Source of the DNA: an uncultured Clostridiaceae bacterium
GTDB lineage: Bacteria > Bacillota > Clostridia > TANB77 > CAG-508
Direction: 5' to 3'
Length of the DNA stretch: 64,000 nt
Assembly: GCA_948444845.1 (NCBI GenBank)
Contig: CAOJVB010000003.1
Coordinates: 12,723 to 76,722, forward strand
In this document: positions 12,073 through 38,956 of the stretch, piece after piece
Layout: the number at the start of each line of letters is the position of its first letter
Numbering within the stretch: position 1 is the first letter of the stretch
The notes under the pieces: generated by a model
Seen by the model: the letters and a program-made list of their open reading frames with translations, nothing else
Told to the model about the DNA's origin: nothing
Databases searched by the model: none
Position numbers and translations under genes: made by a program

Positions 12073-13375
12073 TCACCTATACAAATAACCATTTCTCCTA
12101 TTATACTTTCTCTTTTTCCTCTTTCTCTTTTTACTATTATTATTTAAATTTAATAACCTATATAATAAAAATAGTACTAAAATAACAGAACAAACAGTTA
12201 AAAAAGTATTAAATCCATTTGACTCTATAACATCAGAACCAGCTAAAAGCTTAGAAGAATATTCATTTCCATCAATATTATAAGTTATTTTTCCTATAAC
12301 AGTATTTTGGGAAATAGGAGCTGTTAAATCTGAGTTTATTTCAACTGTAGGAGTTATAGTCATAGTATCAAAATCCTTTTTTATAAGTACAGCTATTTCA
12401 TCTTCAACAACAACATTCAAATTTTTTGTGCTACTGCTTGCTTTGGCTACTTTAGTAGTTCTTAAAACAGAATTTGCTTCATTCAAAGTTTTAACTGTAT
12501 AATTTTCAAAAGCATAGTTAAATAAAGAAATACAATCCAAATTTCTTGCAGAAAGTCCATTTTCAGTAGTTCCAGCACCTAAAATGGTAACAATATATTC
12601 AATGCCATCCTTCATAGCGGTAGCAACAATACAACTTTTAGCAGGGTTTGTATAACCAGTTTTGGCTCCAGTAGTATATTCATAATAGTAATTATCAACT
12701 CTATCTGATGTATCCTTTTTTAATAAAGTATTAGTAGTTCCAAATACTCTATCGTTTTTGTCATACTTATTAGTAGCAGGAAGAGTATAAACGGCCGTAC
12801 CAACAATTTTTCTAAAAGTTTCATTTTGCATAGCGTAACGCCCCATTAAGCTTAAATCATATGCAGTAGAATAATGGTTGCTATTATGAACACCATTAGC
12901 ATTAACAAAATTAGTATTCAAACAACCAATTTCTTTAGCCTTTGTATTCATCATAGTAGCAAAGCTTTCCACAGAACCAGCAATATGTTCAGCTATAATA
13001 GTTCCTGCTTCATTTGCAGAAGGAATTAAAAGAACATGTAATAATTGATTTATAGTAAGTTCTTCGCCAACTTGAATATTAGCATTACTATAACCGAACT
13101 GGTACTGAGAAAACAGCCTCATAACTAGCAGTAGCGACATCTGTTAATTCACAATGTTCTAAGGCAAGAATAGCAGTCATAATTTTAGTAGTACTTGCAG
13201 GAAACATTTTTTCATGCGCATTTTTTTCATAAATTATTTTACCAGTTTTAGCCTCCATTAAAAGGCAAGATGGTGAATAAGTAGTTATATCATTTGTAGC
13301 ACTAAATGTACTTGTAGTGTATAAGCCAAAAAAGGTAATTAAAAGTACAAGTGCTAGTTTTTTTAAATATTTCAT
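12073..13375 (-). pseudogene. D-alanyl-D-alanine carboxypeptidase (S11, PBP5/DacB-like) split by a 1-nt frameshift near 13095-13100
   Basis: ORF 13088..13375 carries the signal peptide and the SxxK motif (ASTTKIMTAILALE) and ends ..EAVFSVPVRL*. ORF 12073..13140 continues in another frame with GYSNANIQVGEELT..SANEAG..KTGYT and a C-terminal anchor. The junction is not in a homopolymer. Confidence 0.8.
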
Positions 13376-14178: not shown

Positions 14179-14550
14179 ATGAAAATTTTAGTAATTGGTG
14201 GAAGTTATTTTTTAGGAAGAGCATTTACACTTATTGCAAGTAAAGAGCATGAACTAACTCTTATAAACAGAGGAACATATTCAATGGCACGGTATGGAAT
14301 AAAAGAGTATAAGGCAGATAGGAGAGATGAAAAAGCTCTACAAAGTATTCCACCTGACAATTATGATGCTATGGAAGTCTTAAGCCAAGTTTCAGAAGTG
14401 CCTATAAAACTTGCACCAATAAGTACAAAAGAAGCACTAAAAGAATATGCAGAAGAAACAATATATTTGCCATTTCCAGTAACTAAAGAGGAAGACGAAA
14501 GGTATGAAGGAAGCAAAGCTGAAAGAGAACTTAATATACAAGTTTACTAG
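14179..14550 (+). pseudogene. remnant of an NAD-dependent epimerase/dehydratase (internal deletion)
   Basis: Rossmann N-terminus MKILVIGGSYFLGRAF..LINRG runs up to ..YDA, then jumps straight to a C-terminal-like tail. It is 123 aa, whereas I expect roughly 300 aa for this family. Confidence 0.5.
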
Positions 14551-14775: not shown

Positions 14776-14956
14776 TTATAATTTTCAATAAATATTAAAT
14801 GAAACAATATTTAATTTTTACCTCTGAGTAGTTACAATTTAAAAAATTTTTTATAAATGTTCGCTAGACAACAAGTAAAAAATAGTATAGACTATGAATT
14901 ATAGAAAATGAGAATAAATAGATGTGGTTTGCCTCCAACAAAAGGAGGTGAGGCGT

Positions 14957-15076
14957 ATGATAGAAACACAATTACTAAATATTATATACATATTATTTTA
15001 TGGATTACTAGGAGTAACTATCGTTGCCTTTGCCTTAATTATAGCATTAGTTATAATTTTAAGCAAAAGCAAATAA
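14957..15076 (+). CDS. 39-aa hydrophobic peptide (type I toxin-like)
   Basis: MIETQLLNIIYILFYGLLGVTIVAFALIIALVIILSKSK. ATG lies 8 nt after GGAGG within AAAGGAGGTGAGG. One TM helix plus a KSK tail. Too short for the ORF track. See finding. Confidence 0.45.
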   Translation: MIETQLLNIIYILFYGLLGVTIVAFALIIALVIILSKSK

Positions 15077-15078
15077 CC

Positions 15079-15167
15079 AATAAAAAGACACATCTGTAAC
15101 CTCACCAAAGTACGATGTGTCAAAACATTTTATAGAGGTCAACCACGTTTGTGGTTTCTCATTTTCT
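15079..15167 (-). ncRNA. candidate convergent antisense sRNA (antitoxin-like), about 90 nt
   Basis: Start predicted about 7 nt downstream of the minus-strand TTGACA-17-TATAAT promoter (15202-15174). The end is predicted at the GACACATC..GATGTGTC hairpin, which on the minus strand is followed by TTTTTATT (15086-15079). Confidence 0.3.
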
Positions 15168-15173
15168 ATATTT

Positions 15174-15202
15174 ATTATAAAAAAAAAACAGCAAAATGTC
15201 AA
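15174..15202 (-). promoter_or_regulatory. consensus sigma-A-type promoter on the minus strand
   Basis: Reverse complement reads TTGACA (15202-15197), an exactly 17-nt spacer, then TATAAT (15179-15174). It points toward the small peptide ORF. Confidence 0.5.
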
Positions 15203-15222
15203 TAGAAAAGAGGAAATAAAAA

Positions 15223-17778: not shown

Positions 17779-19449
17779 ATGAGAAAAGTATTAACAAAGG
17801 AAAAAAAAGTAAAAATAAGTATATTAATAGTAATAATACTAATTAGTATTTTATTTATATATTCATTATATAAAGTAAATATATTTCAAATACTAACAAA
17901 AGGAATAAATCAAGCAAAAAGGGAAGAAATACCAATAGAAACAAAAGCACAGTATCAAATAATGAAAGCAAATGGAGAAGACTACGAAATAGTAATAACA
18001 ATAGAAAACCAAAATGGAATAGAAAAAATAATAGGTGAAGATTTAAGCATACAAGGTAAAGGAAAAAATAAAATAGCAATAGATAAAAAAATGAAAGAGG
18101 GAGAAGAATACAAAATAAAAATAAAAGCAGTAGGAGAAGAAGAAGAAGAATATGTATTAATAGCAACATCTAAACCAATTATAACAATAACAAATATGGA
18201 CACAACAGGTGATGGAACGACAAAAACAGTAGAAATAGAGTATCCAAACAATGAAAAGTTAAAAAATTATTACAGTTTAGATGATGGAATAACATGGCAA
18301 GAATATAGTGGAGAAATAAATGCACTAGAAGTAGAAAATAGAACAATAAATGCAAAAGTAGAAGTAAAAGAAGGAAAAACAATACAAAAAACAGGAGTAG
18401 AAGCAGTAATAGTAAGTGATAGTTTATTGTCAGCAGCAGAAAAAGCAGTTATAGGAAATAATAGATATTATAGAATAGCAATAAAAGATGAAGTATACCC
18501 AGTACACACATATGTAGAAAATGGTGACACAACATATACAGCTAATAAAAGTTATGGAGATGCTAACGATGTTGGTACAGCAAGTGCAAATGCTAAAAAT
18601 ATGGTATTAGTAAAAGTAAATGGAGACCTAACAATAAATAGTGGAGTAACAGTAACATCATATGGAACAAGTTATGGAGGAACAAAGGGAATGCTACTAT
18701 ATGTAACAGGAAACTTAGAAAACAGAGGAACAATAACAATGACAGCAAGAGGAGCAAAAGCAGAAGGTCAAAATGTATACTTATGGAAAAACGCAGATGC
18801 TTCTCAAAGAGGAGAGTACGAATTTGTACCTAAAGTAGGTGCCTCTGGAGGACTGGAGAAGAGTTATGGATTTTTTCCTGACGTAACGTTAATTGGAAAC
18901 CCAGGAGAAAATGGAACTTCTAGAAAAACAGGAGGAGGCTCCTCAGGAAGTATTCGAATGAGGACCACCACTTCAGTGTCAGGAAGAGGAGGAAATGGAA
19001 CATCTTACTCTGGAGGAACTGGTAGTGGAGGGGCATATCATGGAACAACTCAGAACGGTAGTGACAATGGAGGAGCAGGAGGAAACTCTATAAATCCCAA
19101 ATCATGGGGAGGAGGGGGCGCAGGAAACCCAGGAGGGACTGGGGGTTCGATTGCTCCAGCTAGTTGTGGAACAGGTGGGCTGTTAATATTATATGGTAAT
19201 TCAATAGAAAACAAAGGAACAATATCTTCAAATGGAACAAATGGGGGTATCGACAGCAACGCACCTGGAGGCTCATCTGGAGGAGGAAGTATAAATATAT
19301 TTTATAATGAAGGTATAACAAAAGGAACAATTTTAGCAACAGGAGGTAAGGTTGCAAGTCAACCTTATGTTCCTGTAGGAGGAGCGGCAGGAGGAAATGG
19401 CTGTATATCAGTAGGAACTATAATAGAAGGAACATATTCAGCAAAATAA
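17779..19449 (+). CDS. membrane-anchored glycine-rich surface protein, paralog 1 (556 aa)
   Basis: SD AGAGAGG. N-terminal TM. Conserved ectodomain, then about 200 aa of Gly-rich C-terminal module with islands SGRGGNGTSYSGG, GSDNGGAGGN, GTGGLLILYGN, GGSSGGGSINIFYNE. Has its own upstream promoter-like region. Confidence 0.8.
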   Translation: MRKVLTKEKKVKISILIVIILISILFIYSLYKVNIFQILTKGINQAKREEIPIETKAQYQIMKANGEDYEIVITIENQNGIEKIIGEDLSIQGKGKNKIAIDKKMKEGEEYKIKIKAVGEEEEEYVLIATSKPIITITNMDTTGDGTTKTVEIEYPNNEKLKNYYSLDDGITWQEYSGEINALEVENRTINAKVEVKEGKTIQKTGVEAVIVSDSLLSAAEKAVIGNNRYYRIAIKDEVYPVHTYVENGDTTYTANKSYGDANDVGTASANAKNMVLVKVNGDLTINSGVTVTSYGTSYGGTKGMLLYVTGNLENRGTITMTARGAKAEGQNVYLWKNADASQRGEYEFVPKVGASGGLEKSYGFFPDVTLIGNPGENGTSRKTGGGSSGSIRMRTTTSVSGRGGNGTSYSGGTGSGGAYHGTTQNGSDNGGAGGNSINPKSWGGGGAGNPGGTGGSIAPASCGTGGLLILYGNSIENKGTISSNGTNGGIDSNAPGGSSGGGSINIFYNEGITKGTILATGGKVASQPYVPVGGAAGGNGCISVGTIIEGTYSAK

Positions 19450-25060: not shown

Positions 25061-25089
25061 TTGACTTTAAATCAAAAATTTTTTATAGT
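25061..25089 (+). promoter_or_regulatory. sigma-A-like promoter for the giant adhesin gene
   Basis: TTGACT (25061-25066), a 17-nt spacer, then TATAGT (25084-25089), about 40 nt upstream of ATG 25130. Confidence 0.5.
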
Positions 25090-25129
25090 AGAGTTACATG
25101 AAAAAACAATAAAAGGAGAGGTAAAGAAA

Positions 25130-28100
25130 ATGTCAAAAGAAAAAATTAGAAAAGCAGTAAGCAATAATCAAAATAGAATATTAGCAATGCTTGTTATGAT
25201 AATTTCTATTTTATTAATAGTAGGCATAACTGTAAATGCTAATAAAAATGATGATTATGCAGTTGAAATTAAAGACAATGGTGAACAAAACATTGCTACA
25301 AATGAAGACTATGATAGCGATAATCCAAAAAATTATGATTCTAGCATAACTAAGAAAATAGTAGCAGATACACCAAAAAGTTTAACATATGAGGTGCAAG
25401 TTAAAAACTTAGCTCCCAATATAGTGCCAGAGCTAGCTATCGTAATAGATAGTTCTAGAAGTATGGGCATAAATGATATAGATAATAAAGTAAAGGAAAA
25501 AGTTATACAATTAGTAACTGAACTTAGAACAAACTCACCAAAAACAAAGATATCTATATCTACTAATACAGGAGTAAAAGTAGGGTTATCAACTCAAACA
25601 GTAGATCAGTATACTACTGCTATAAATGGTATAAGCTTTTCAGATGGAGAAAGTGTAGGAAAAGGTATAGACTATGCTACAAGTACACTATCAGCAGGAG
25701 ATAGAGGAAAATACTTAGTAATATTCTCAGATGCAACTGATTCACTAAAAGAAAAATTAGAAGACTTAACAGTGAATAGACATTTGGAAATATTTTCTAT
25801 ATTAACTGACATTACTAATAATGAGTATGAAACAAGTACACTAATGGGAACAAACCAAATGATAAGTGATGTTCAAGATTTTTCTAATTTATACTATAAA
25901 ACTAATACTAGTATGGTAGATGTTAAATTAACAGATATATTTACTAGCGAAGTAAATGAATATTTTGAATTTACAGAAGTTTTTAAAGATACTAATGTAG
26001 AGATTGAAAAGACCTCGAATGGATATATATTAAAATGTAATGAAATAAAAGCAGGAGAAACTAAAACATATAAATATACATTAACATTAAAAGATGATGC
26101 AAAAATAGATGCGGGAAAAATATATAGAGAGTTAAATACAAGTGATAATTTAACTATAGAATATAAAGATAGAGATGAGCAAAGTCATACATACAATATG
26201 GAAACAACTCCTACATTTGTAATATGTAAAAAATATAGCTTAACTATAAAAGCAGTTAGTGAAAAAAGTAATGACTTACCTTTAGAGAACTTAGATGTAA
26301 AAGTAGTAGGAACAACAGTTACAGGTCAAGATGAAAATGGAAATGATATAGTAAAAACTGTATTTGACGAAACATTAACAACAGATTCAAAAGGAAGAAT
26401 ATTAATAGATAACTTAAAAACATTAGGAGATATTACATTTGAAATAAAACCAATAGTTAATAGGTTTGGATATCAAGAAACATCAGCAACTCAAGTTATA
26501 GTACATAATGACCCAACAGGTGTAGGAACAATATGGGCAGAATCAGATATCAGAACACCAGATGTAGATGTTGTAAATAGAAACATAACAGTATTATTAC
26601 CAATATCAGTAGAAACATATGATATGGAAATAGAAACTGTAGACTTAACCAATAATAACATTAAATTAGGAAATGCAGAATATAGATTAATTCAACCTAA
26701 ATTAAATAGTAAATATGAAATGGAAGCATTGTATGGAACTTCAGGACCAGATGGCAAATTAGTATTTAAACCAGCAGTAATGACTAAAGATGGTTCATAT
26801 CAATATATATTAACACAAATGAATAAAGTTCCAGACTATGATCCAATGGGAAATGCTACTATAATTGTAACATTTGAAAATGGAAAAGTAACAAAAATAG
26901 CACATCAATATAATGAAAATGTTGAAACAGAACTAATAAGCAATACACAAACAAAAGTAATAGTAGGAAATGCTTCATTACAAGATGATACATTTAATTT
27001 AGAAATAAACTTAAGTGATGAATTAACAGGAGAAAAATTATTTGGTGGTATATATGACATATTAGTTGAAAGAACAACTCCAGCAGGAGACCCAGTGTCA
27101 TCACTATTAAGTGGATATATGACAGATAATGATGGAAAAATAAACATTGAAACACCAGGAACAGGATATATAAGACTAAAAATAGTAGAAACTAGTCCAA
27201 AAGCAGGATATGTTGCAGACCCAACTGAAAAGGAATTAACCTTTTTCAGAGATGGTGGAACTGTACAATATATAACAGCTAAAAATCCACCAACAATGGA
27301 TGCAATAGCAGATTCAGATAATAACAAAATAATAATTAACTTTAAAAGCAAAGTAGCAAATGAGCAAAATAGAATACAAGTACGATTAATGGATGAGCAA
27401 GTACATACTGACAATATACCAGGAGTAACATTATCATTAAATAAAGTTGGAAGTTCAGACATAATATATGCTACAACAAATAGAGATGGTATAGCAAACT
27501 TCATAATACCAAATGAAGATATAGGAAGCTACCAATATGAAATTGGTTTATTCTCAGCAGTACCAAAAGGATATTTAACACCAGCTACTACACAATTAGG
27601 AGTAATAACAGTTACTTATGATGGAACTAGATATATGGTTGATGCAGGAGCAGTAAGTACTAATGTACCAACAATGAATGTAAGCTATAACCAAAGTACT
27701 GAAACAGGTTTCATATATCATACTGCACGAGTAGACCTAAGCTTAGATGTAGACCCAGCATATGCATACCAATTAAAAATAAACTTACTAGATGGAAGCA
27801 CAATGAGAGGTTTAGCTGGAGGAAAATATAGTATATTAATGGAATCAGATGGAGTAGAAGTAAAATACTTATCAGGAAAACTTACAGACAGTAATGGTGA
27901 CTATACTACAAGGATAGTAGGTGGAGGACAAAGTATAGTAATAACAATTACAGAAACAGCAACATTACCAGGTTATATATTAAATACAACTACTCAAGTA
28001 ATAGAATTAGAATTAACAGATGCAGGTTATGTAGTTGCAAACAGCTCACCAAATATATATGACCCATCAGCAGGAAGCTATATAGGAGTAACAACATCAC

Positions 28101-31100
28101 CTTCAGGCAAAGAATTTGTATATCATGACATAAACAATAGTAAAACAGGTGCAAACACAATATTAAACTTACATGTAAACAAAATGGACCTAAATGATTT
28201 CTTAGTAGCAGGAGTAAGAGTAAAATTAAGCTCACCAACACTACTAAGAGCAGATGGAACTACACTAGACTCTATGTATGATGTATTAGATGATAATGGA
28301 ACTGTTATAGGAAGAAGAGATTATTATGTAACAGACCAAAATGGATATTTTGAAGAACTAGCAATAAAAGTAAAAGGTGACGAATTAACTAATGGAGAAA
28401 GAATAGATTACCTATATATGAATGAACTAGATGCAGACGGAAACATTATACCAAACACAGATATTACATTTAAGTTAACATTTAGACAAAATAAAAACAC
28501 ATATGTAGTAGAAGTAACAAACGTAGAAGCAACTTGGGGAAATAGACTAGTAAAAGGTAAAACATATAGCTCAAGAGAAACAGATGTAGCATACGAAAGT
28601 GATGTATACTTAGACATATATACAAACTTCGATGATGTAGGAAACTTCTCAATAGACTTAAAGAAATTAGACAAGGATGGCAAAAAATTATCAGGAGCAA
28701 AATATGATATAGTAGTAATGAGACCAGATTCTACAACATTAGTAAGAAGAGATATAAATGTTACAGACAGTGTAGAATTAGATGGAATACTAGTAAGTGA
28801 AGGAACAAAAATAGAAATAACAGAAAAACAAGCACCAATAGGATATAATATAAATGAATACACAGAAGTAATAACAATAACAAAAGTAGACTCAATAACA
28901 GGTCTAGTAGAATGTAGACTAGAGCCAAGTTCATACACACCATCAAGAGCAACAATATCAGCAACTCAGCCAATAGTAAGTTCAGATGGAAGATATAAAC
29001 TATGTATTACATTAGATATGATAGATTATGAATCTGATACATTTAAACTAGGAATAACAGCTAAAGATTCTACAACGGGAAATGGAATTAAAGACTATAG
29101 ATTTAAAGCTGAAACAAGTCAAGGAGCACAAAAGAATTTAGCACCAACCGATAGCAATGGAAAAACTTCAAACTTATTAGGTGCAAACTATAAAATAGAT
29201 AATTTTGAAGTAATATACACAATAGATACTTTAAGGGTAGCAGACTACTATAAAAGATTAGTAAACCCAATTGAGTTAAAAGTAATATTTGACTTAAATG
29301 GAAATGTAAAAACAGCTGAAACAGATGCCGCAAACATAGGACAACCAGGTTATGGAACAATTTGGAGCATAGTAGGTACAAATACAATAGGTGGAAATGA
29401 TATAGACTTAGACATAAAAATAGACCCATGTGATCCACTAGTAGTAAATATTCAAACAACAGATACAATAACAGGAAATCAATTAACAAATATAGCTTAT
29501 CAAATAGTACCAAGTGTAAACTTACCAGCAACAGGAAATACACAAATAACAGTTGGATATGTATTACCAGGAGGAGCACAAACATACACAATAAAACAAA
29601 CAAATGCAGCTTCAATAGGAAATTACAAAGCAGTACCAGAACAAAGAATAAAAGTAACATATGATATAGATGGAAATGTAACAGCAGTAGATGAATTAAC
29701 AAATGAAGTACACGAAGTATCAATAAATGGAAAACAAATAACAATAAAAATAGATATAGAACCAGAAGTACCATTTACTATGAAAAACGTAGCATACTTC
29801 CATAATGATGTAAATATTGGAAATGCAAAATTTGAAATAAGTGTAGATGATGACAATACAAAACAATTACTAACAACTTCATTAGGAGAAGACGTAAAAT
29901 ATACAGGTAAATTTGAAACAGATACAAGCAAAATATATACAGTAAAACAAATAAGTGCAGGAACAGGTTATGCAAAAATAAAAGATTTCCAAATAGAAGT
30001 ATTCTTTGATGCAGACAGAAATATTACAAAGGCTGAAATAGTAGGAAATAAAGATGTAGGAAATGTAAATGAATTTGTAGAATTTGTAGAAGTAAGTGTA
30101 ACAAGACCATCAACAGCAGCAGATAGAGGATACAACGGAAATGACAAAGGAATAGTAAATATTACAGTTAAGAGCTACCCACAAGTTGAATTCAAAATTA
30201 AGAATGTTGATAGAAGAGATGACACAATAAATCTTCAAGGAACAGTTTATAAAGTAGAATCTACTATAGATACTAGAGATGAAAGCATAGTTACAGGAAG
30301 CGATGGAATAGGAACAGCAAAACTAGATAAAAGTGGATATAGCACACACGTTAAATATACAATTACAGAAATGCAACCAGCAGCTAGATATCAAACATTA
30401 GCAATACCAGCTGTAATAGATGTAGAATTTAATGAAAGAGGTTATATTGTAAATACTACAATAGAAAAGAGAGATGATGTAGTAACAGTAGTAAGACCAG
30501 AAGTGTTTGACCCAGAAGATAACTTTAAATTAGACATAAAAATAAAGAGTAATCCAGAACTTAAAGTAAACATTACAAAAGTAGATGAAGAAGACAATAC
30601 TATATTAATACCAAATGTAAGTTTTGAAGTAACAGCAAGAATTCTAAAAGACAATTTAGCAGAATTTAGTACAGAAGACCAAGATAAATTAACATTAAAT
30701 ACATCAACATTAACAGAAGAAAACTACTTAGCACAAGTATTGGATAGACTAAAGATAGACAGAGAAGATGTAGAAAGCTTAAGAAAGAGCATAGGAGTTA
30801 AAAACGTAATAGAAGAACTAAAGAATAGCAATAATTTAACAGCAGCAGAAGAAGACGAAATAAATTCACAATTAAATGATAACTTAAGAATTAACAAAAT
30901 AGTATCTTTAGGAAAACGTACAAAAACACAAATAAACCAAAAAATAGCAGAAGTAACTAATAGAACAATTATAGATAAATTAATAGAAGAGGACAAAACT
31001 TCTAATGACGCTGTAAATGACCTATTAAACAAAGTTAAAAATCAAATAAGATTAGATGTAGATAATATTGTAACAAATGCAAATGGATTAGGCGTAGCAT

Positions 31101-34100
31101 ATATGGATAAAACATTAGCAAATAAAACAATAGAATATACATTAAAAGAAACAAGAAAAGTAGCAGGATATGATTGGTTAGATGAAGTAGTAATATTAGA
31201 AATAACATATGATGAAAATGGAAAAATGGTAGCAGATAACCCAGTAAGAGTAGTTTCAGGGGCAATTGATATAACAAATGTAAATCAACAAGGCTTTGAA
31301 ATATCAGCAACAGTTAAAAATAAACCAAGTAAAGAAATACAAATACACCTATCAGTAGAAGATGTATATGACTCAAATAAAAAACTTGAAGTAGCAAAAT
31401 TTGATGCATACTTAGTTTCAACTGAAGCAGATGATAGACTAACATTTTCACCAGATAATGACTTTAGAGTAGCATTAGAAACAGGTTCAGTAACATCAGG
31501 AACAGGATTAACAACAGCACATGGAGAAGACACAGAAAGTATGGGTGTATATGACAGAGGAGCAGGTTCAAGATTATTAAGACTAGTACAAAAACAAACA
31601 CCAAGCGCATACTACTTAGGAAATGACAAATTTGATAGTGTTTATCAATCTATTCAATATGCATTACTTGTAAATGTAAGTTTTGATGATGAAGGTCGTA
31701 TAACAGGCACAAGTTTACATTCACCAGGTAAAGATTCAATATATATTGGATATATAGCAGATGGAAGATATATACAAGTATCAAATACAAGAAATACTAT
31801 AAACATAACAATTAAATATTACCCAATGTTACAAGTACAAATGCAAACAGTGGATATGTACACTAAACAAAGTTTAGCAGCAAATTATACAATAGATACA
31901 CGTTTATGGGGTACATCATGGCAACCAGATTCAATAGTAAGTGCAGGATATATAAATCCACTTTTCACAACTTGGTGGGATGGAGTACATACTTATGGAT
32001 ATGACCATTATGGTAGAACATATAGTGCTGGATATACAACAAGCGCATCATTAGCTTCTTTAGAACAAGCACCAAGAGTTGCAATAGCACCAACAGATGC
32101 AGATAGATTCCCAGAAAATAAAAATCCTAATAAAGACAGGAAAGAAAGAACATTATATGTATATGAAAATGCAGAACCAAATTCACCAGTACAATATCAA
32201 ACATATTTACCAAGACATGTAACAAGGTCAGCACAATATTTAATAGCAACATTAAAAGTAAAATATGATGATATAGGACAAGTAAAAGATGTAGAAGTAA
32301 TACAAGAATATTCATCAACAAATATAACATCAGGTTTCACAAAAATAGTAAAAGCAACAGTAAATCAATACACAATAGGAATAACAATAGAATATGCACC
32401 AATAACAACAATAAATGCAACAGTTATAGATGAAGTAAGTGGAGCAGGACTTTCAGGAATAAGAGTTAACCCTTACTTAGGAGGAACAAGTGTAACAAAT
32501 ACATCTTATGAATATAGAACAACATTATATTATACAACAAATAGTAATGGTAGAACAGGATGGACATATTGGGGAGCAAGTCAACCAGATTCATTAAATA
32601 GATATATATTAGACACATACACAGTAGGTTCAGGATATGAAGGATACTTTGACCCAGGAAATATAATATTAGATGTAGCATATGATGACAATGGTAGAGT
32701 TTCAAGTGTTACACCAAAGAGTACAGACGCCTTTGGAGATGTAAATGCAATAAATATAAGCTGGGTAAATAATAACATTCAAGTTACAATTAGATATTCA
32801 AGGAAATTTAATGTAAAATTAAATAAAGTTGATTACTATGATAGTAACAAGAAACTAAACGCAGTATTTAATATAACATCTAGCAATGGAGTAGAAACAT
32901 CAATGGCTGCAAATACAACTACAACATTAGGAAAAGTATATCCAGGAAAATTAGTACAATATACACTATCTGAAACAACAGTACCAGCAGGATATATACC
33001 AGTAGAAAATATGGACATATTAGTACAATTTAATAACAATGGAACTATTAGAGCAGCAACATCTTTAAGTGATTACTATCAATTTGTAAGATGTGCGCCA
33101 CTAGACTCAGGAACAAATAGTTTAAAGAAGACAGACTTAGAAGCAAATATTAAAAATAAACCAAGGTTTGATGTTACAGTACAATTATCAGATAAATTCT
33201 ATCCAACATTAAAACTTGCAGGCGGAACATTTACAATGGAAAGCAGCAAAGGAGAAATAGCATCAGGAGGAGTTCAAACTGACAGTAATGGAATACTTGA
33301 AACTTATGTAGGAACAGTATATCCAAATGAAGAAGTAACATATACAATAAAACAAACAAACGTAATACCAGGTTATTACCAAAACAATACTGTAGTTAAA
33401 TTTAAAGTACACTTTAACGCAAATGGCAAATTAGATAATTATAGTTTAATAGATGGTAGTGATGTAGCAACAATAAATCCAACAGCACATATTGGAACAC
33501 AGAAGGTAAAAGTAAACATTACAAATAAACCAAAAGATGTTAGATTAGGAATTTACAAAAAGGATCAATTAGATGGTTCACCATTATCAGACATTAAATT
33601 TAAACTAACAACTATGGAAGACGGAAAGAAAGATATTGTAAAAGATGTTGTAACAAATGCAAATGGAACAGTAATAGACGTAGTAGATGAATTTAAAGAA
33701 TTAGCAGGAAGCAACAGAGTTGTAACATATAAGATATCTGAAATAGAAGCAGCACCAACATATAGAAAGATACAAGACATAGTAATAAAAGTAACATATA
33801 AACCAGATGGAAGTATGTACCTATATGATGTAGTAAGTAACCCAAGCAATGTAGGAATAGAAATGGCTACAAATGGACAAATAAAATATTTAGATAATAC
33901 ACCAATACATATTAAACTTACAATTCCAAACGACAACGCATATGACTTAATAATTAAAAACGAAGATAAAAACTTACCAGGTTTAGGAATTGAAGGAACT
34001 GTATATGATGTAATAATAGATGGAATAGTTCAAAGCCCTATAACTACAAATGCAAATGGTATAGCAAAAATTGCAAACCAAACTCAAACAGGTGAAATTA

Positions 34101-37100
34101 CAATAGATATTGCTGAAAGAACTATAGGAGAAGGATACAGAGCAGACAATAACAACTATACAACAATTAAAGTAGAAAAAGGTGTAGATGAATATACACT
34201 AGTATACACAGACCATACAAATCAAACATATGCAACTGTAGATGTAAATGAAGAGTATGGAACAATAACAGTAACATTCAAAAATGAGACAAAATTAGAA
34301 TTAACTATGCAAAAGAATGATATAAATACAGGAGCTGTATTACAAGGAGCAGTATTTGAAATTAAAGAAGAAGAACTAGATAATACAGGAAATGTAATTA
34401 CAGGAACAGAAAAAATAATAACAGGAGATACTACAAATACAACAGATGCAGATGGACTACTATACTTTGACTTAGGATTATCAAAACGAAATGCAACAGT
34501 AAGATATACATTTACAGAAACAACACCACCAGCAGGATATGACCAAATATTCCCAATAACTATGACAGTAGAATTTGACAATTATGGAAATATAATATCA
34601 ATGACAGATGATTCATTTAGAGCTAGAGAAACATTAGCATCAAATACAGGAAAATCACATCATATGATAGTAACTATAGGTAATGGAACAGTAAATGAAC
34701 AATATAGTGTAAAAATAGTTAAAGAAGACTCACAATCAGGAAGAAGAATAAATAATGCACTATTTGAAGTAGAGGTAATAGAAGAAAATACAGGAGCAAC
34801 AAATAGATCAGCAAAAGGATATACCAAAGACTTAACAAGTACACTTGCTGGAGAAACAGTAATATTCGAAAGAGGAGCATATCAAGTAAATGGAATAACA
34901 GCAGAAGGAAATGTAAAAATTAACTTTAGAGAAATAGAACCAGCAGTAGGATATGTAGTAGGACAAAACCCTGTATCAGGAACAGTAACAATAAATGCAC
35001 AATTTGACGTAGTAGAATCAAGCCAAGAAAAAGAAGTAACATTAACAGAAGTAAACAATGGTGGATTTGATGTAGTAGTAGACACAGTTAATAGAGAAGT
35101 TACAATAAAAGTAAAAAATGACCCAGATGTAACATTTGAAATAACAAAAATAGATGGAGATACAAAAGTACCAATGCAAAACGTAAAATTCCATATAACC
35201 TCAGCAGTAGTAACAAATGGAACACCAGGACCAATAACTTTAGATAAAGATATGCAATTAACAGATGAAAGAGGATTTATATCAGAAAGTGTTGGATATG
35301 CATATGCAAATAAAACAGTAATATACACATTAACAGAGGAAAAAGTGGAAGCATATGATAAGCTAGATGATATAGTATTAGAAGTTCAATATGATACAAA
35401 TGGAAACATTATAAATTGTAATGTATTAAGTAGCCCAGATGATATTACAATAAAACCTAATGCAGAAAAAACTATAAGAAAACAAATAATAAAAGAAACA
35501 GGCACTCCAGGTAATGTAAGTATACAATATTCAGATATTAAAATTCCAACAGGAATAGGAACTAGAATATTACAAATGGAAATAAACAACCATAGAACAA
35601 TAATACCAAAAGATTATCGAATTCAAATAGGTAAATACCATGAAGACACAACATATCCATATTTAATACCAGGAGCAAAATATGAAATAACAGTAACACA
35701 ACAATATGGAAAGAAAGAAACAACATGGACAGATATAACAGATGAAAACGGTGTAATAACAAGCCCATACTTTAGTGGATTTGGAGAAATAGAAGTACAA
35801 ATAAAAGAAGTATCAGCACCAGACGGATATAAACTAGATGGAATAACAAAAACAACAAGATTTATAAGATATGAAACTTCACAAAGAATGGTAGTAATAT
35901 CTTCAGACTCAGGCTGTACATTTAATGATGACTTTACAATGGTAAACTTAAAAGCAGTAGATGAAGTAATTGGTGGATTATATGATATTGTAATTAACAA
36001 AGTAGATGTAAGAAGCGGAGCATTAATACCAGATAACCCAGCAAAGATAAAAGTAGAGATGGAAGAAAAATACGAAACAATAACACAAGAAATTGATGAA
36101 GAAACAGGAGAAGTAGTAGAAAATGTAGAAATCTCAACAGTAAGAGTTCCAGTAGTAGAAGATGTAACAGACGAAAATGGTAGACTAATTGTAAGTAAGT
36201 TAAAAGCACCAGCAAAAGCAGGAGAATATAAATACATTCTATCAGAAATACAAGCACCAGTAGGATATAATGGAATAGCTGAAAGTGAAGTAGAAATATT
36301 AGTAACATTTGAAGAAAATGAAGACCAAGAAATGATAATTACAAATGTAGTTGTAGCAAATGCAGAAGACGTAAGGGCAGCAAAAACTTCAAATAAAGTA
36401 ATGAGCATAATTGTATACAATGGTGGAGATAACTATGATGATGTAACATTAAACGATGATGAATTTGCAATCGACTTAAGAAAAGTAGATAGTGAATTAT
36501 ATCAAATAACAACAACAACAGCAGAATTCAAATTAACAAACTTAGAAACAATGGATGAAACACAAATTATTACAGATGAACTAGGTAGAGCAGAAGTAGT
36601 AAAACTAAAAATGCCAAAAGAACCAGGACGTTATAAATATAAACTAGAAGAATTAAGAGCACCAAAAGGATATAAAATAACTGAAGAACCTATGTACCTA
36701 TTACTAGAATTCTTAGAAGACGAAGAAGGAAAATTATATTTAAATAGTGTAGGAACAGAAGGTAAAAACCTAGTACATGCTAATAAGGCAGTAGGAAATA
36801 CATTACCAAACAGAATAATAAAATTACAGGCAATAAATGAAGATAGACCATATACACTAATAATAGAAAAACACCATGAAGCAGACCCATATTATCCACA
36901 ATTCATAGCTGATGTACAATTTGAAATAAAAGTAACACCAGAATTCGGAGAAAAATTAGAAACAACACAAACAACAAATGCAGAAGGTATTATAACAATA
37001 GAGAACTTAGAAGGATATGGACGTATCAAAGTAGAAATAAAAGAGTTAGCAGCACCAAACAAATATAAGCAAGACTTTTCTGTAAAACATCTTGAATTCT

Positions 37101-38956
37101 ACAGAGAGAAAGGTTCAAAAGAATTAAAAGAATACGACGCTAATGTACACTATGAACTAAGAGATGATGAACAAGAAGTAGTATTAATGCCAGTAAATGA
37201 ATTAGCAGCAGGAATATATGATATTGTAATAAGCAAGGTAGATAAGACAAATAATACTGTAATAACTAATAACCCAGCAGAATTTAGCTTATATAGAATT
37301 GATAAATACGATACAGTAGCAGAAGATGGAGTAACACCAATAGTATCAGAGGTAAGAGTTCCAATAGTAGAAAATAAATTAACAAACAACTTAGGAATGC
37401 TAATAACTGAAGAAGTAAAAATGCCAACAGAACCAGGAACATATACATTTGAATTAGAGGAAATAACAGCTCCAAATGGATATGAAGGATTAACATCACC
37501 AGTTAGATATGAAATAACTGTAGAAGAAGATGCTATAGGAGATACAATGATTACAGATGTTAAATTATTAAATAATACAGATAAAGTAAAAATACTTTCA
37601 TTTAAGAAACAATTCCTATCATTATCTGTAGCAAATAATAATGGAATACCAGAAGGAAGCATATCAATAGATGTAGCAAAAGTAAATAAAGACAAAAATC
37701 CAATTTCAACAGATACAGCAGTATTCAAAGTGACAGATGAGAAAACTGGAAAAGTATTAAATTATATAGAAACAGCTAAAGGAAGTGGAACAGGATATGC
37801 ATATATTACTAAACCAACTACTGCAGGAGAGTATACATATATACTAAACGAAATAAAAGCACCAGAAGGATATGCATTAAATAGAAAAGACATAAAAGTA
37901 AAAGTAAAATATGAATACAACGATGAAGGCGGATTAGATATAACTAATGTAGAAGTAGACGGAGAAAATGTAATATATGAAATACCAGAAACAGGAGTAG
38001 AGGCAAATAGAGTATCATTAAGTGTTAAAAACGAGGTAGCAGAAGGTGGTAGTGGCAATGCAAATGATAAGCCATATACAGTAATAATAAACAAATTAGA
38101 TGTAGATACAAGAAATCATATTAAAGATCGTGCAACATTTGATGTAGCGTTAGTAAGTGGCGAAATAGTACATGCATCAACAAACGAAAGAGGCCAAATG
38201 ATAATAGAAAATGTACATATGCCAGCAACACCAGATCAATATGAATTACTAATAAAAGAAACAAAAGCACCAGAAGGCTATATATTAGACTCAGACATAA
38301 AAGTTGTAAAAGTAACATTTAGTGGAAATGCTCAAGACATGATAATATCAAACCTTGCATTAGGAGCAGGAAGTACTAATATAGAAATAGTAGAAGCAGA
38401 ATGTACAGAAGATAAAATAGTACTTAATGTAATGAACAAATCAACAAATTCAGACTACGACCCATTATATGTAGTATCAAGAAAGTACGAAAGCGGAGAA
38501 GACATATATGATGTACTAGAAGGATTCACAGGAGACGACTATAGTATTGACAAGCCATTTATAGATACAAAGGTTGCAAGATACATGAAAGACACAACAG
38601 TAGAACAATTTATAGGAAACTTAGAATCAAATGGAGTAATGACAGTACTAGATAAAAACGGAAATGAATTATCACCAACAGCAAGAGTAAAAACAGGAAT
38701 GACACTAAGAGCAGTAAAAGGAAATGAAGAATTAAGATTCACAATTATTATAAAAGGTGATAGTAGCAAAGACGGAAGATTAACAGCAACAGATTTACAC
38801 CAATTTGAGGACCATGTATCAGGTAAGAAACCAATAACAGATCCAATAAAACTAAGAGCAATTGACTTAGTAAAAAATTACGGAGACGGAAAAATAAGAG
38901 CAACAGACTTAAACGAATTCTACAAATTAATAAGCAAAGGTGAACTACCAGACTAA
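25130..38956 (+). CDS. giant surface adhesin (~4600 aa): N-terminal TM anchor, VWA domain, more than twenty SpaA/Cna-B-type (prealbumin-like) beta-sandwich modules, C-terminal dockerin
   Basis: One uninterrupted frame. Preferred start is ATG 25130 (MSKEKIRK) after AAAAGGAGAG. The track start at 25061 is a TTG that coincides with the -35 box. Repeated ..TD.NG...L..G.Y...E..AP.GY.. modules run throughout. Confidence 0.9.
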   Translation: MSKEKIRKAVSNNQNRILAMLVMIISILLIVGITVNANKNDDYAVEIKDNGEQNIATNEDYDSDNPKNYDSSITKKIVADTPKSLTYEVQVKNLAPNIVPELAIVIDSSRSMGINDIDNKVKEKVIQLVTELRTNSPKTKISISTNTGVKVGLSTQTVDQYTTAINGISFSDGESVGKGIDYATSTLSAGDRGKYLVIFSDATDSLKEKLEDLTVNRHLEIFSILTDITNNEYETSTLMGTNQMISDVQDFSNLYYKTNTSMVDVKLTDIFTSEVNEYFEFTEVFKDTNVEIEKTSNGYILKCNEIKAGETKTYKYTLTLKDDAKIDAGKIYRELNTSDNLTIEYKDRDEQSHTYNMETTPTFVICKKYSLTIKAVSEKSNDLPLENLDVKVVGTTVTGQDENGNDIVKTVFDETLTTDSKGRILIDNLKTLGDITFEIKPIVNRFGYQETSATQVIVHNDPTGVGTIWAESDIRTPDVDVVNRNITVLLPISVETYDMEIETVDLTNNNIKLGNAEYRLIQPKLNSKYEMEALYGTSGPDGKLVFKPAVMTKDGSYQYILTQMNKVPDYDPMGNATIIVTFENGKVTKIAHQYNENVETELISNTQTKVIVGNASLQDDTFNLEINLSDELTGEKLFGGIYDILVERTTPAGDPVSSLLSGYMTDNDGKINIETPGTGYIRLKIVETSPKAGYVADPTEKELTFFRDGGTVQYITAKNPPTMDAIADSDNNKIIINFKSKVANEQNRIQVRLMDEQVHTDNIPGVTLSLNKVGSSDIIYATTNRDGIANFIIPNEDIGSYQYEIGLFSAVPKGYLTPATTQLGVITVTYDGTRYMVDAGAVSTNVPTMNVSYNQSTETGFIYHTARVDLSLDVDPAYAYQLKINLLDGSTMRGLAGGKYSILMESDGVEVKYLSGKLTDSNGDYTTRIVGGGQSIVITITETATLPGYILNTTTQVIELELTDAGYVVANSSPNIYDPSAGSYIGVTTSPSGKEFVYHDINNSKTGANTILNLHVNKMDLNDFLVAGVRVKLSSPTLLRADGTTLDSMYDVLDDNGTVIGRRDYYVTDQNGYFEELAIKVKGDELTNGERIDYLYMNELDADGNIIPNTDITFKLTFRQNKNTYVVEVTNVEATWGNRLVKGKTYSSRETDVAYESDVYLDIYTNFDDVGNFSIDLKKLDKDGKKLSGAKYDIVVMRPDSTTLVRRDINVTDSVELDGILVSEGTKIEITEKQAPIGYNINEYTEVITITKVDSITGLVECRLEPSSYTPSRATISATQPIVSSDGRYKLCITLDMIDYESDTFKLGITAKDSTTGNGIKDYRFKAETSQGAQKNLAPTDSNGKTSNLLGANYKIDNFEVIYTIDTLRVADYYKRLVNPIELKVIFDLNGNVKTAETDAANIGQPGYGTIWSIVGTNTIGGNDIDLDIKIDPCDPLVVNIQTTDTITGNQLTNIAYQIVPSVNLPATGNTQITVGYVLPGGAQTYTIKQTNAASIGNYKAVPEQRIKVTYDIDGNVTAVDELTNEVHEVSINGKQITIKIDIEPEVPFTMKNVAYFHNDVNIGNAKFEISVDDDNTKQLLTTSLGEDVKYTGKFETDTSKIYTVKQISAGTGYAKIKDFQIEVFFDADRNITKAEIVGNKDVGNVNEFVEFVEVSVTRPSTAADRGYNGNDKGIVNITVKSYPQVEFKIKNVDRRDDTINLQGTVYKVESTIDTRDESIVTGSDGIGTAKLDKSGYSTHVKYTITEMQPAARYQTLAIPAVIDVEFNERGYIVNTTIEKRDDVVTVVRPEVFDPEDNFKLDIKIKSNPELKVNITKVDEEDNTILIPNVSFEVTARILKDNLAEFSTEDQDKLTLNTSTLTEENYLAQVLDRLKIDREDVESLRKSIGVKNVIEELKNSNNLTAAEEDEINSQLNDNLRINKIVSLGKRTKTQINQKIAEVTNRTIIDKLIEEDKTSNDAVNDLLNKVKNQIRLDVDNIVTNANGLGVAYMDKTLANKTIEYTLKETRKVAGYDWLDEVVILEITYDENGKMVADNPVRVVSGAIDITNVNQQGFEISATVKNKPSKEIQIHLSVEDVYDSNKKLEVAKFDAYLVSTEADDRLTFSPDNDFRVALETGSVTSGTGLTTAHGEDTESMGVYDRGAGSRLLRLVQKQTPSAYYLGNDKFDSVYQSIQYALLVNVSFDDEGRITGTSLHSPGKDSIYIGYIADGRYIQVSNTRNTINITIKYYPMLQVQMQTVDMYTKQSLAANYTIDTRLWGTSWQPDSIVSAGYINPLFTTWWDGVHTYGYDHYGRTYSAGYTTSASLASLEQAPRVAIAPTDADRFPENKNPNKDRKERTLYVYENAEPNSPVQYQTYLPRHVTRSAQYLIATLKVKYDDIGQVKDVEVIQEYSSTNITSGFTKIVKATVNQYTIGITIEYAPITTINATVIDEVSGAGLSGIRVNPYLGGTSVTNTSYEYRTTLYYTTNSNGRTGWTYWGASQPDSLNRYILDTYTVGSGYEGYFDPGNIILDVAYDDNGRVSSVTPKSTDAFGDVNAINISWVNNNIQVTIRYSRKFNVKLNKVDYYDSNKKLNAVFNITSSNGVETSMAANTTTTLGKVYPGKLVQYTLSETTVPAGYIPVENMDILVQFNNNGTIRAATSLSDYYQFVRCAPLDSGTNSLKKTDLEANIKNKPRFDVTVQLSDKFYPTLKLAGGTFTMESSKGEIASGGVQTDSNGILETYVGTVYPNEEVTYTIKQTNVIPGYYQNNTVVKFKVHFNANGKLDNYSLIDGSDVATINPTAHIGTQKVKVNITNKPKDVRLGIYKKDQLDGSPLSDIKFKLTTMEDGKKDIVKDVVTNANGTVIDVVDEFKELAGSNRVVTYKISEIEAAPTYRKIQDIVIKVTYKPDGSMYLYDVVSNPSNVGIEMATNGQIKYLDNTPIHIKLTIPNDNAYDLIIKNEDKNLPGLGIEGTVYDVIIDGIVQSPITTNANGIAKIANQTQTGEITIDIAERTIGEGYRADNNNYTTIKVEKGVDEYTLVYTDHTNQTYATVDVNEEYGTITVTFKNETKLELTMQKNDINTGAVLQGAVFEIKEEELDNTGNVITGTEKIITGDTTNTTDADGLLYFDLGLSKRNATVRYTFTETTPPAGYDQIFPITMTVEFDNYGNIISMTDDSFRARETLASNTGKSHHMIVTIGNGTVNEQYSVKIVKEDSQSGRRINNALFEVEVIEENTGATNRSAKGYTKDLTSTLAGETVIFERGAYQVNGITAEGNVKINFREIEPAVGYVVGQNPVSGTVTINAQFDVVESSQEKEVTLTEVNNGGFDVVVDTVNREVTIKVKNDPDVTFEITKIDGDTKVPMQNVKFHITSAVVTNGTPGPITLDKDMQLTDERGFISESVGYAYANKTVIYTLTEEKVEAYDKLDDIVLEVQYDTNGNIINCNVLSSPDDITIKPNAEKTIRKQIIKETGTPGNVSIQYSDIKIPTGIGTRILQMEINNHRTIIPKDYRIQIGKYHEDTTYPYLIPGAKYEITVTQQYGKKETTWTDITDENGVITSPYFSGFGEIEVQIKEVSAPDGYKLDGITKTTRFIRYETSQRMVVISSDSGCTFNDDFTMVNLKAVDEVIGGLYDIVINKVDVRSGALIPDNPAKIKVEMEEKYETITQEIDEETGEVVENVEISTVRVPVVEDVTDENGRLIVSKLKAPAKAGEYKYILSEIQAPVGYNGIAESEVEILVTFEENEDQEMIITNVVVANAEDVRAAKTSNKVMSIIVYNGGDNYDDVTLNDDEFAIDLRKVDSELYQITTTTAEFKLTNLETMDETQIITDELGRAEVVKLKMPKEPGRYKYKLEELRAPKGYKITEEPMYLLLEFLEDEEGKLYLNSVGTEGKNLVHANKAVGNTLPNRIIKLQAINEDRPYTLIIEKHHEADPYYPQFIADVQFEIKVTPEFGEKLETTQTTNAEGIITIENLEGYGRIKVEIKELAAPNKYKQDFSVKHLEFYREKGSKELKEYDANVHYELRDDEQEVVLMPVNELAAGIYDIVISKVDKTNNTVITNNPAEFSLYRIDKYDTVAEDGVTPIVSEVRVPIVENKLTNNLGMLITEEVKMPTEPGTYTFELEEITAPNGYEGLTSPVRYEITVEEDAIGDTMITDVKLLNNTDKVKILSFKKQFLSLSVANNNGIPEGSISIDVAKVNKDKNPISTDTAVFKVTDEKTGKVLNYIETAKGSGTGYAYITKPTTAGEYTYILNEIKAPEGYALNRKDIKVKVKYEYNDEGGLDITNVEVDGENVIYEIPETGVEANRVSLSVKNEVAEGGSGNANDKPYTVIINKLDVDTRNHIKDRATFDVALVSGEIVHASTNERGQMIIENVHMPATPDQYELLIKETKAPEGYILDSDIKVVKVTFSGNAQDMIISNLALGAGSTNIEIVEAECTEDKIVLNVMNKSTNSDYDPLYVVSRKYESGEDIYDVLEGFTGDDYSIDKPFIDTKVARYMKDTTVEQFIGNLESNGVMTVLDKNGNELSPTARVKTGMTLRAVKGNEELRFTIIIKGDSSKDGRLTATDLHQFEDHVSGKKPITDPIKLRAIDLVKNYGDGKIRATDLNEFYKLISKGELPD
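25448..25462 (+). other. MIDAS motif (D-x-S-x-S) of the VWA domain
   Basis: LAIVIDSSRSMG, followed about 100 aa later by LVIFSDATD, fits a von Willebrand A fold near the N-terminus of the giant protein. Confidence 0.65.
38756..38953 (+). other. type I dockerin-like module (two EF-hand-like repeats)
   Basis: GDSSKDGRLTATDLHQFEDHV ... NYGDGKIRATDLNEFYKLI. Two D-x-D/N-G-x-I/L-x-A-x-D-L segments sit at the extreme C-terminus. Confidence 0.7.

Follow-up and report, generated by a model that had tools for sequence, protein, structure and literature searches.

A module of about 365 bp lies upstream of pcrA in a 64,000-nucleotide (nt) window of an uncultured Clostridiaceae genome (assembly GCA_948444845.1, contig CAOJVB010000003.1, positions 12,723 to 76,722; this whole stretch is referred to below as the window). 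It probably belongs to an undescribed family of type I toxin-antitoxin-like modules of uncultured, low-G+C gut Clostridia. In the proposed scheme, a weak promoter would produce an mRNA of approximately 270 nt for a single-helix membrane peptide, the presumed toxin, and a near-perfect convergent promoter would produce an antisense RNA of approximately 89 nt, ending at a hairpin (T1) located just past the stop codon. Such a module had been suggested by a sequence-only reading of the window. All the features listed in that reading were found at the places it gave, and all but one were conserved in relatives. Judged from sequence and its comparison, the module is a well-supported candidate, not a proven type I toxin-antitoxin system.

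Conservation of the membrane peptide

Translation of the open reading frame (ORF) at 14957-15076 gave the 39-amino acid (aa) peptide of the sequence-only reading, MIETQLLNIIYILFYGLLGVTIVAFALIIALVIILSKSK. It has a glutamate at position 3, no charge from residue 4 to residue 36, and a C-terminal K-S-K, consistent with the single transmembrane helix and short lysine tail ascribed to it. Small hydrophobic peptides of this type (below about 60 aa, with a predicted membrane helix) are characteristic of type I systems.

A search with the ORF returned ten homologues with 69-83% identity. Relatives were collected by scanning one genome per species, which gave 167 loci, 80 of which were fetched. In these 80 loci and the first three metagenome contigs, 74 homologues were intact, each of 36 to 46 aa. 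Entropy at codon positions 1, 2 and 3 was 0.72, 0.36 and 0.83, respectively, making the second position the most conserved, and the ratio of nonsynonymous to synonymous substitution rates (dN/dS) had a median of 0.34, or 0.33 by summed ratio. Therefore the ORF evolves as a protein and, judging from these alignments, is under purifying selection; coding conservation had been left to be checked by the sequence-only reading. That reading had also described the ORF as unannotated. In contigs from other samples that are identical to the window, the ORF was likewise left uncalled by gene-finding programs.

Homologues differ in frame 5' of the ATG, indicating that conservation upstream of this codon is at the RNA level and that the ATG at 14957 is the start. 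A 50-aa ORF starting from a GTG (14924) was ruled out, as the upstream stretch is in varying frames among homologues and is kept as RNA, not as protein.

Constraint at the RNA level was also detected inside the ORF. Synonymous sites are frozen at ACT ATC ... ACG TTT GCC and at AGC. The pairing ATGATAG:CTATCAT, between the start region and the inside of the ORF, is kept in 49/49 sequences, and pairing of the start codon with this intra-ORF element also appears in predicted folds. In addition, GTTTGC pairs with intra-ORF GCAAAC, with compensatory changes. A promoter-like TTGCCT-16-TATAAT (10/12 matches; 15030-15057, plus strand) is present within the peptide ORF.

The window peptide matched no Pfam family. 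Pfam and NCBIfam searches with this peptide and 46 family members yielded only weak chance matches to unrelated transmembrane segments, none of which was a type I toxin, Fst or Hok/Gef family. Homology to BsrG was rejected: comparison of the family profile with BsrG by hhalign gave a probability of 0.5% and E = 0.11, with a BsrG query verified against SPbeta. The view that the peptide matches no toxin family that can be named thus held in Pfam, NCBIfam and hhalign. The exact peptide sequence was absent from the records in which it was looked up, and a full-text literature search for peptide motifs found no paper. Rfam gave no family at the gathering score anywhere in the 64 kb, and only chance-level matches in the local region at E <= 10.

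The predicted convergent antisense RNA

The minus-strand consensus promoter pointed out by the sequence-only reading is indeed perfect, and is the sole perfect match to TTGACA-17-TATAAT on both strands of the 64 kb (0.07 expected by chance). Across 65 loci it agreed with the consensus at 11 or more of the 12 positions in 63 (mean 11.5/12), and its -10 box was exactly 4 nt from the conserved motif in all 65. The spacer is 16 to 18 nt long and variable in sequence.

The T1 hairpin, GACACATC/GATGTGTC, folds at -11.7 kcal/mol (z = -4.4). The sequence after it on the minus strand is TTTTTATT, as reported, and a minus-strand T run is found 3' of T1 in 60/60 loci. The positions of antisense promoter and terminator are those of the convergent RNA of about 90 nt (15167 to 15079) suggested in the sequence-only reading; both are conserved, with variable sequence between them. 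At the sequence level, an antisense gene complementary to the mRNA thus has a promoter and a terminator to itself, as in type I systems. The predicted RNA would have an unpaired 5' end and two hairpins, stem-loop SL1 and then T1, joined by a variable linker of about 12 nt. In a consensus of 61 sequences, the SL1 and T1 stems displayed compensatory changes, in 11 sequences between the two subfamilies described below and in 2 within the main one.

On the plus strand, a T run (at least 5 T in 8 nt) follows T1 in 33/60 relatives, so that T1 can terminate both RNAs there. Only 2 of the 8 nt are T in the window.

Leader hairpin and sequestration of the ribosome-binding site

The peptide promoter is below consensus at the same place across the 65 loci (mean 9.0/12, never 12) and always the weaker of the two, with a 17-nt spacer in 62 of them and 7 nt between the -10 box and the leader motif in 51. 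A short motif, TGTTCGCT(AGACA/TGTTT), recurs upstream in many loci of unrelated neighbourhoods. It stands directly 5' of the peptide promoter -35 box (TAGACA or TTGTTT) or overlaps it, and might represent an extension of the promoter or a site for a regulator.

The strong Shine-Dalgarno sequence (SD) noted by the sequence-only reading is present as GGAGG (14944-14948), 8 nt 5' of the ATG. Its proposed sequestration by an upstream CCTCC proved to be part of something longer: this GCCTCC belongs to a 14-bp hairpin formed by ATGTGGTTTGCCTCC (14922-14936) and GGAGGTGAGGCGTAT (14944-14958), which folds at -15.0 kcal/mol (z = -3.6) and in which the SD is buried together with the start codon's first two bases. 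Across the family the leader reads ATAGGAAATGAGAATAAGCAGATGTGGTTTGCCTCC-loop-GGAGGTGAGGCGTATG. Among 49 aligned mRNAs, no variation was seen at leader positions 21-36 or in the SD arm. The mRNA is thus predicted to carry a sequestered ribosome-binding site, another characteristic of the type I class.

The SD has a low unpaired probability (0.03-0.13) in all predicted states. In the main subfamily, its predicted opening was 0.13 for full-length mRNA vs 0.03 when the 3' untranslated region (UTR) was masked as if by the antisense RNA; locus by locus, full-length mRNA exposed the SD more in 25 cases and less in 1.

A second way of covering the SD had been proposed, through CCTCACC in the T1 loop, complementary to GGTGAGG. 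The complementarity is present in the window (-13.9 vs -6.8 kcal/mol for shuffled loops, p = 0.005), but is not conserved across 51 relatives (mean z = 0.09). It was therefore rejected as a family trait and is specific to the window.

Predicted pairing between mRNA leader and tail

The AACCAC-gttt-GTGGTT hairpin with its T-rich sequence, at which the sequence-only reading let the mRNA end, is present at 15141-15156. This hairpin (T2) is the only plus-strand terminator-like site turned up by the scan, and may be a weak mRNA terminator. Family members share the order of ORF, A run and hairpin T1, followed by a tail that includes T2, GGCAAACCAC-GTTT-GTGGTTT-CTCCATTTCCTAT. The tail is followed by 4 nt, the reverse complement of TATAAT, 16-18 variable nt and the reverse complement of TTGACA.

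One feature had been missed in the sequence-only reading: a complementarity between the initial ~36 nt of the mRNA and the ~35 nt at its end. The complementarity belongs to an imperfect 46-nt inverted repeat (14897-14942 with 15128-15173) and forms two helix blocks, A (14901-14914 with 15156-15169) and B (14924-14936 with 15135-15146). The leader:tail duplex of the window has an energy of -41.4 kcal/mol. This helix dominates the predicted fold of the 269-nt mRNA (14901-15169), which reaches -81.3 kcal/mol vs -44.1 kcal/mol for shuffles (z = -8.6). Both RNAs begin with the same ~14 nt right after their -10 boxes. The tail is covered by the predicted antisense RNA, whose 5' end is therefore a copy of the mRNA leader.

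A second subfamily has a longer leader (~79 nt) and wholly different block B and T1 sequences, with leader-tail complementarity kept. Duplexes between a leader and its own tail amounted to -41 kcal/mol in the main and -37 kcal/mol in the long subfamily, vs -30 and -24.5 kcal/mol for cross-subfamily duplexes and -13 kcal/mol with shuffled tails. Within the main subfamily, 97% of the cells in the helix were paired, vs 41-50% when the partner was slid. Changes on both sides of the helix affected 6 pairs and 16 cells, values reached by 1 and 0 of 500 shuffles, respectively. Differences between leader and antisense RNA were G-U-compatible transitions in 190 cases vs 70 incompatible ones. In block A, 21 G-U cells were counted vs 21 unpaired cells, 8 of the latter at the terminal pair. 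Finally, three fixed wobble pairs allow the leader to pair with bases that also form T2. We read this as selection on leader-tail RNA pairing itself, as far as comparison of sequences can indicate it.

Positions and strands of the features of the module in the window (positions count from the first letter of the window).
Feature	Position	Strand	Remarks
Motif ATGTTCGC	14857..14864	+	Conserved; adjoins the -35 box of the peptide promoter
Promoter of the peptide (presumed toxin), TAGACA-17-TAGACT	14865..14893	+	9/12 consensus matches
mRNA leader (5' UTR)	14901..14956	+	Block A 14901-14914; anti-SD arm 14922-14936; SD arm 14944-14958
Peptide ORF	14957..15076	+	39 aa; one predicted transmembrane helix
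Intra-ORF element ACTATCGTTGCCTTTGCCTT	15017..15036	+	Complements SD spacer, start codon and codons 2-3
T1, antisense RNA intrinsic terminator	15079..15121	-	Hairpin at 15087-15121, with TTTTTATT after it on the minus strand
Predicted antisense RNA (candidate antitoxin), ~89 nt	15079..15167	-	Ends deduced from promoter and terminator
mRNA 3' tail, GAGGTCAACCAC ... TTCTCATTTTCTAT	15135..15169	+	3' strand of the long-range helix; contains T2
Hairpin T2, AACCAC-GTTT-GTGGTT then TCTCATTTTC	15141..15156	+	Terminator-like site
Antisense RNA promoter, TTGACA-17-TATAAT	15202..15174	-	Perfect consensus

Distribution and copy number

The fetched loci all came from uncultured Clostridia or Bacillota metagenome-assembled genomes (MAGs) and from uncultured isolates, the carriers being mostly of gut origin. 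Titles of the carrier records mention human, mouse, rabbit and chicken samples. A peptide profile search recovered 501 protein clusters at E <= 0.01, none with a Pfam domain; those with a name were called 'hypothetical', except one mislabelled 'ABC-type permease component'. Over 120 metagenome contigs matched the invariant leader pattern exactly, and many of these bear the label of a human-gut assembly. No match to the peptide was obtained by tblastn (E <= 1) among 50,697 phage records, and the same kind of search finds BsrG. No match to the peptide or to the DNA patterns was found in IMG/VR.

Neighbourhoods of the module are variable. The 348 flanking ORFs fell into 247 clusters, the biggest group with a common neighbouring gene comprised 9 loci, and the pcrA neighbourhood of the window was common to no other locus examined. 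A search for further copies, as recommended in the sequence-only reading, showed that the module is single in the 64-kb window (no second copy by tblastn or nhmmer), and that several MAG assemblies contain 2-3 loci, some in tandem and some from both subfamilies. Multiple diverged copies in variable neighbourhoods are a common, although not obligatory, trait of type I systems.

Two pairs of copies (L053:2014-3216 and L079:534-1719) each combine one main-type and one divergent long-leader copy, with their own leader and tail. Tandem copies are also present at L083 and L065, and CATLFA01 and CAADUZ01 each contain both subfamilies on separate contigs. Such co-occurrence of the two subfamilies suggests paralogues without cross-reaction. 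A second, partial copy of the module in the opposite orientation lies at a contig end (L001:1-113, minus strand). Several short metagenome contigs end at the module, as expected for a repeat that breaks assembly.

About six copies (L017, L051, L057, L078, L080 and L083) are decayed: ATA or AGG stands in place of the start codon, the SD carries mutations, the 5' end is truncated or an in-frame stop interrupts the ORF. In sequence terms, these losses appear to fall on expression of the peptide.

Comparison with known type I systems

The sequence-only reading had compared the layout to that of 3'-overlapping systems such as txpA/RatA and bsrG/SR4. This is supported by the conserved ORF, antisense promoter, terminator and SD hairpin, and by the unrelated neighbourhoods and multiple copies in one genome. 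Closest in organization is bsrG/SR4 of the Bacillus subtilis SPbeta prophage. In that system, probing showed that nt 1-35 of the bsrG mRNA pair with nt 232-262; SR4, transcribed from a promoter stronger than that of bsrG, binds the 3' part of the mRNA and frees its 5' end, the helix at the SD being extended from 4 to 8 bp, and the duplex is decayed by RNase III (PMC3834814). Both peptides are hydrophobic with a short basic tail (38 aa for BsrG, 39 aa here). In both cases, for the module by prediction, a convergent antitoxin RNA with the stronger promoter overlaps the 3' end of the mRNA, and the first ~35 nt of the mRNA pair with the 3' segment covered by the antitoxin. For the module, this bsrG/SR4-type arrangement (convergent genes overlapping at the 3' end, a 5'-3' helix, an antitoxin over its 3' strand) is seen in the sequence and in the predicted fold. 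Differences are also clear. The antisense RNA is ~89 nt long here vs ~180 nt for SR4; a leader-like segment stands at its extreme 5' end, the two RNAs starting with the same ~14 nt; a second hairpin, T1, is inserted between ORF and tail, and the antisense RNA stops short of the ORF. Copies of the module are chromosomal in the uncultured Clostridia that carry them, and none was found in a prophage. The two systems share no peptide homology, and the module has no Rfam match. By analogy, the module would work like bsrG/SR4 without being a member of that family.

With txpA/RatA of the B. subtilis skin element, the module shares a small membrane peptide, here a presumed toxin, and a pair of convergent RNAs whose overlap is at the 3' end. 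txpA/RatA is regulated by duplex-dependent decay, which is presumed for the module as well. The peptides and RNAs are unrelated, the overlap is confined to the 3' UTR here, and the module peptide is much shorter than TxpA (59 aa). The par system of Enterococcus faecalis pAD1 (Fst/RNA II) also has convergent RNAs, a small single-helix peptide and a 5' structure that limits translation. Its shared bidirectional terminator has a counterpart in 33/60 relatives of the module, although T1 is not bidirectional in the window. Direct DNA repeats make the 5' ends of the two par RNAs mutually complementary; the repeats of the module are inverted, not direct, and its two RNA 5' ends are therefore identical instead of complementary. 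An Rfam fstAT match in this region of the window scored 17.7 bits vs a threshold of 72 (E = 3.2).

In hok/Sok (plasmid R1) and AapA/IsoA (Helicobacter pylori), as predicted here, 5'-3' pairing closes the full-length mRNA and SD sequestration is layered (T1TAdb paper). In these two systems, which are Gram-negative, the antisense RNAs lie wholly inside the mRNA and target its 5' or translation-initiation region, whereas for the module the predicted target is the 3' strand of the fold-back helix; the sequences are not similar. Within the class Clostridia, Clostridioides difficile possesses convergent overlapping genes (CD2517.1-RCd8, CD0956.2-RCd10 and others), whose toxins of 34-53 aa have a hydrophobic N-terminus and a lysine-rich C-terminal end (PMC6563280). 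These systems are associated with prophages or with CRISPR arrays (PMC6563280), and no such association was seen for the module. Such toxins are carried by phages and prophages of C. difficile, the CD0956.2/CD2517.1 family being frequent in its phages. No similarity of the CD0956.2/CD2517.1 type appeared in the phage tblastn search, of a collection whose inclusion of C. difficile phages was unchecked.

Proposed mechanism

The module has a counterpart for each structural element of bsrG/SR4, and the same mechanism is therefore proposed, its steps being conjectural. Translation of the peptide would be controlled at three levels, all predicted: the leader hairpin would bury the SD, the intra-ORF element would pair with the start codon, and in full-length mRNA the first ~36 nt would pair with the 3' tail. 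The antisense RNA, fully complementary to the tail and T1, would bind the 3' UTR and open the 5'-3' helix; the freed leader would refold into the SD-sequestering hairpin, and RNase III would have access to the long duplex thus formed. What the comparison shows are the features in the sequence, their conservation, the coding signal and the joint evolution of leader and tail; we infer in this scheme the transcription of both RNAs, their exact ends, the toxicity of the peptide and the direction of the switch.

A further reading is tentative, and we consider it rather doubtful. The antitoxin could mimic the mRNA leader and compete for the 3' tail, opposing a closed, stable mRNA to a silenced, degraded one. 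The nested terminators, T1 inside and T2 outside, would set the fraction of mRNA bearing a tail, and read-through would constitute a third control point. The module would then be a self-contained, nearly palindromic RNA switch with two promoters, in which the ribosome site is not blocked directly. If this were true, termination read-through would be a control point undescribed for type I systems.

Weighing of the explanations

Several observations weigh against a type I toxin-antitoxin module working in the proposed way. The peptide is without detectable homology to any known type I toxin. Phages and plasmids are home to many type I systems, and tblastn found no copies in either. In all states the SD is predicted to be buried for the most part, folding giving no clear on/off contrast; since it is only slightly more open when the mRNA is full-length, folding argues weakly for the way the switch would act. 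T1 could stop the mRNA ahead of the tail in more than half of the relatives. T2 is a weak terminator, and an mRNA stopping 7-9 nt past it would lose part of block A. Moreover, the both-sided changes in the helix could partly reflect homogenisation of a DNA inverted repeat.

These last points lead to a possible, if questionable, alternative, in which the 36-nt inverted repeat is kept as DNA or for identity (as an operator or initial-transcribed element common to the two promoters, or as a 5' tag read on both RNAs) and not for RNA pairing. No 5'-3' helix would form, the mRNA ending at T1 or T2, and the action of the antisense RNA would be confined to its overlap at T1. This would account for the identical starts of the two RNAs and would agree with the plus-strand T run at T1 in 33/60 loci and the clipping of block A by termination at T2; gene conversion between the arms would also yield both-sided changes. 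It is countered by the bias of leader/antisense differences to G-U-compatible transitions, and by the six central leader bases, GCAGAU, all of which pair with tail GUUUGU though unlike the antisense RNA, with the three fixed wobbles. It is also countered by the block B sequences of the subfamilies, entirely different yet still complementary, and by the same kind of helix in bsrG, established by probing. As to the peptide, its toxicity is argued by analogy, with no known toxin family matched, and many small membrane proteins have a similar composition. A harmless small membrane protein, for instance a subunit or regulator, tuned by a cis-antisense RNA is nevertheless unlikely: the gene has no fixed partner, its neighbourhoods differing nearly everywhere, and exists as multiple, diverged paralogues within one genome; translation is predicted to be blocked in three ways under an antisense promoter far stronger than that of the peptide; and decayed copies are specifically without start codon or SD. 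Neighbourhoods, copies, blocks and decay together form a pattern typical of silenced toxins, not of a housekeeping subunit.

Two other explanations involve the DNA around or between the repeats. A selfish miniature inverted-repeat transposable element (MITE)-like repeat, whose conserved features reflect mobility, would fit ~270 bp enclosed by imperfect 36-46-nt inverted repeats and present in multiple copies in many neighbourhoods, as well as the short metagenome contigs that end at the module. We regard it as very unlikely, as conservation extends beyond the repeats to both promoters and the upstream motif, the interior peptide is under purifying selection and no transposase is associated; in any case, mobility and toxin-antitoxin function are compatible with each other. 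A leader or attenuator regulating the downstream pcrA has next to no probability. It is suggested by the pcrA start located 20 nt from the antisense -35 box, by the lack of another promoter-like site between module and pcrA, and by a leader-like motif overlapping the pcrA ribosome-binding site. However, 0/83 other loci have an adjoining pcrA, their downstream genes differ, and the module has its own ORF, promoters and terminator. The type I toxin-antitoxin-like module thus remains the explanation we favour.

Genomic context in the window

The window has a G+C content of 28.6%. The GTG start of pcrA is at 15223 (plus strand) and, as no other plus-strand promoter-like site stands between it and the module, pcrA may depend on transcription through the module. 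A third copy of the leader-like motif, ATAGAAAAGAGGAAA, at 15202-15216 (plus strand), overlaps the ribosome-binding site of pcrA; its complementarity to the mRNA tail (15155-15169) is 80%. Such a copy may arise by chance where DNA is AT-rich, or it may couple translation of pcrA to read-through transcripts.

Just upstream of the module, a 123-aa ORF (14179-14550, plus strand) with a Rossmann-like N-terminus (GGSYFLG) has no Pfam match on record and may be the remnant of a truncated epimerase/dehydratase. At 12073-13375 (minus strand), two overlapping ORFs, of 95 and 355 aa, together represent one split gene for a Peptidase_S11 (D-Ala-D-Ala carboxypeptidase). Independent contigs show this split too; the apparent frameshift is not an assembly error of the window alone. 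Elsewhere, the window contains a glycine-rich 556-aa ORF without Pfam match (17779-19449) and very large ORFs at 25061-38956 (4631 aa), 53226-58196 and 58215-63473.

Significance

If the toxin-antitoxin reading is true, uncultured gut Clostridia harbour a widespread, hidden family of type I toxin-antitoxin candidates, missed by annotation because the ORF is uncalled in the source organism and 'hypothetical' elsewhere. The two subfamilies, with different but internally matched leader, tail and terminator, sometimes side by side in one genome, constitute a natural experiment, in which the specificity of an antitoxin RNA for its own toxin mRNA can therefore be studied. The peptide might serve for counter-selection in Clostridia, and the RNA pair as a compact regulatory part. 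More broadly, the family would bring comparative support for a bsrG/SR4-type mechanism beyond Bacillus.

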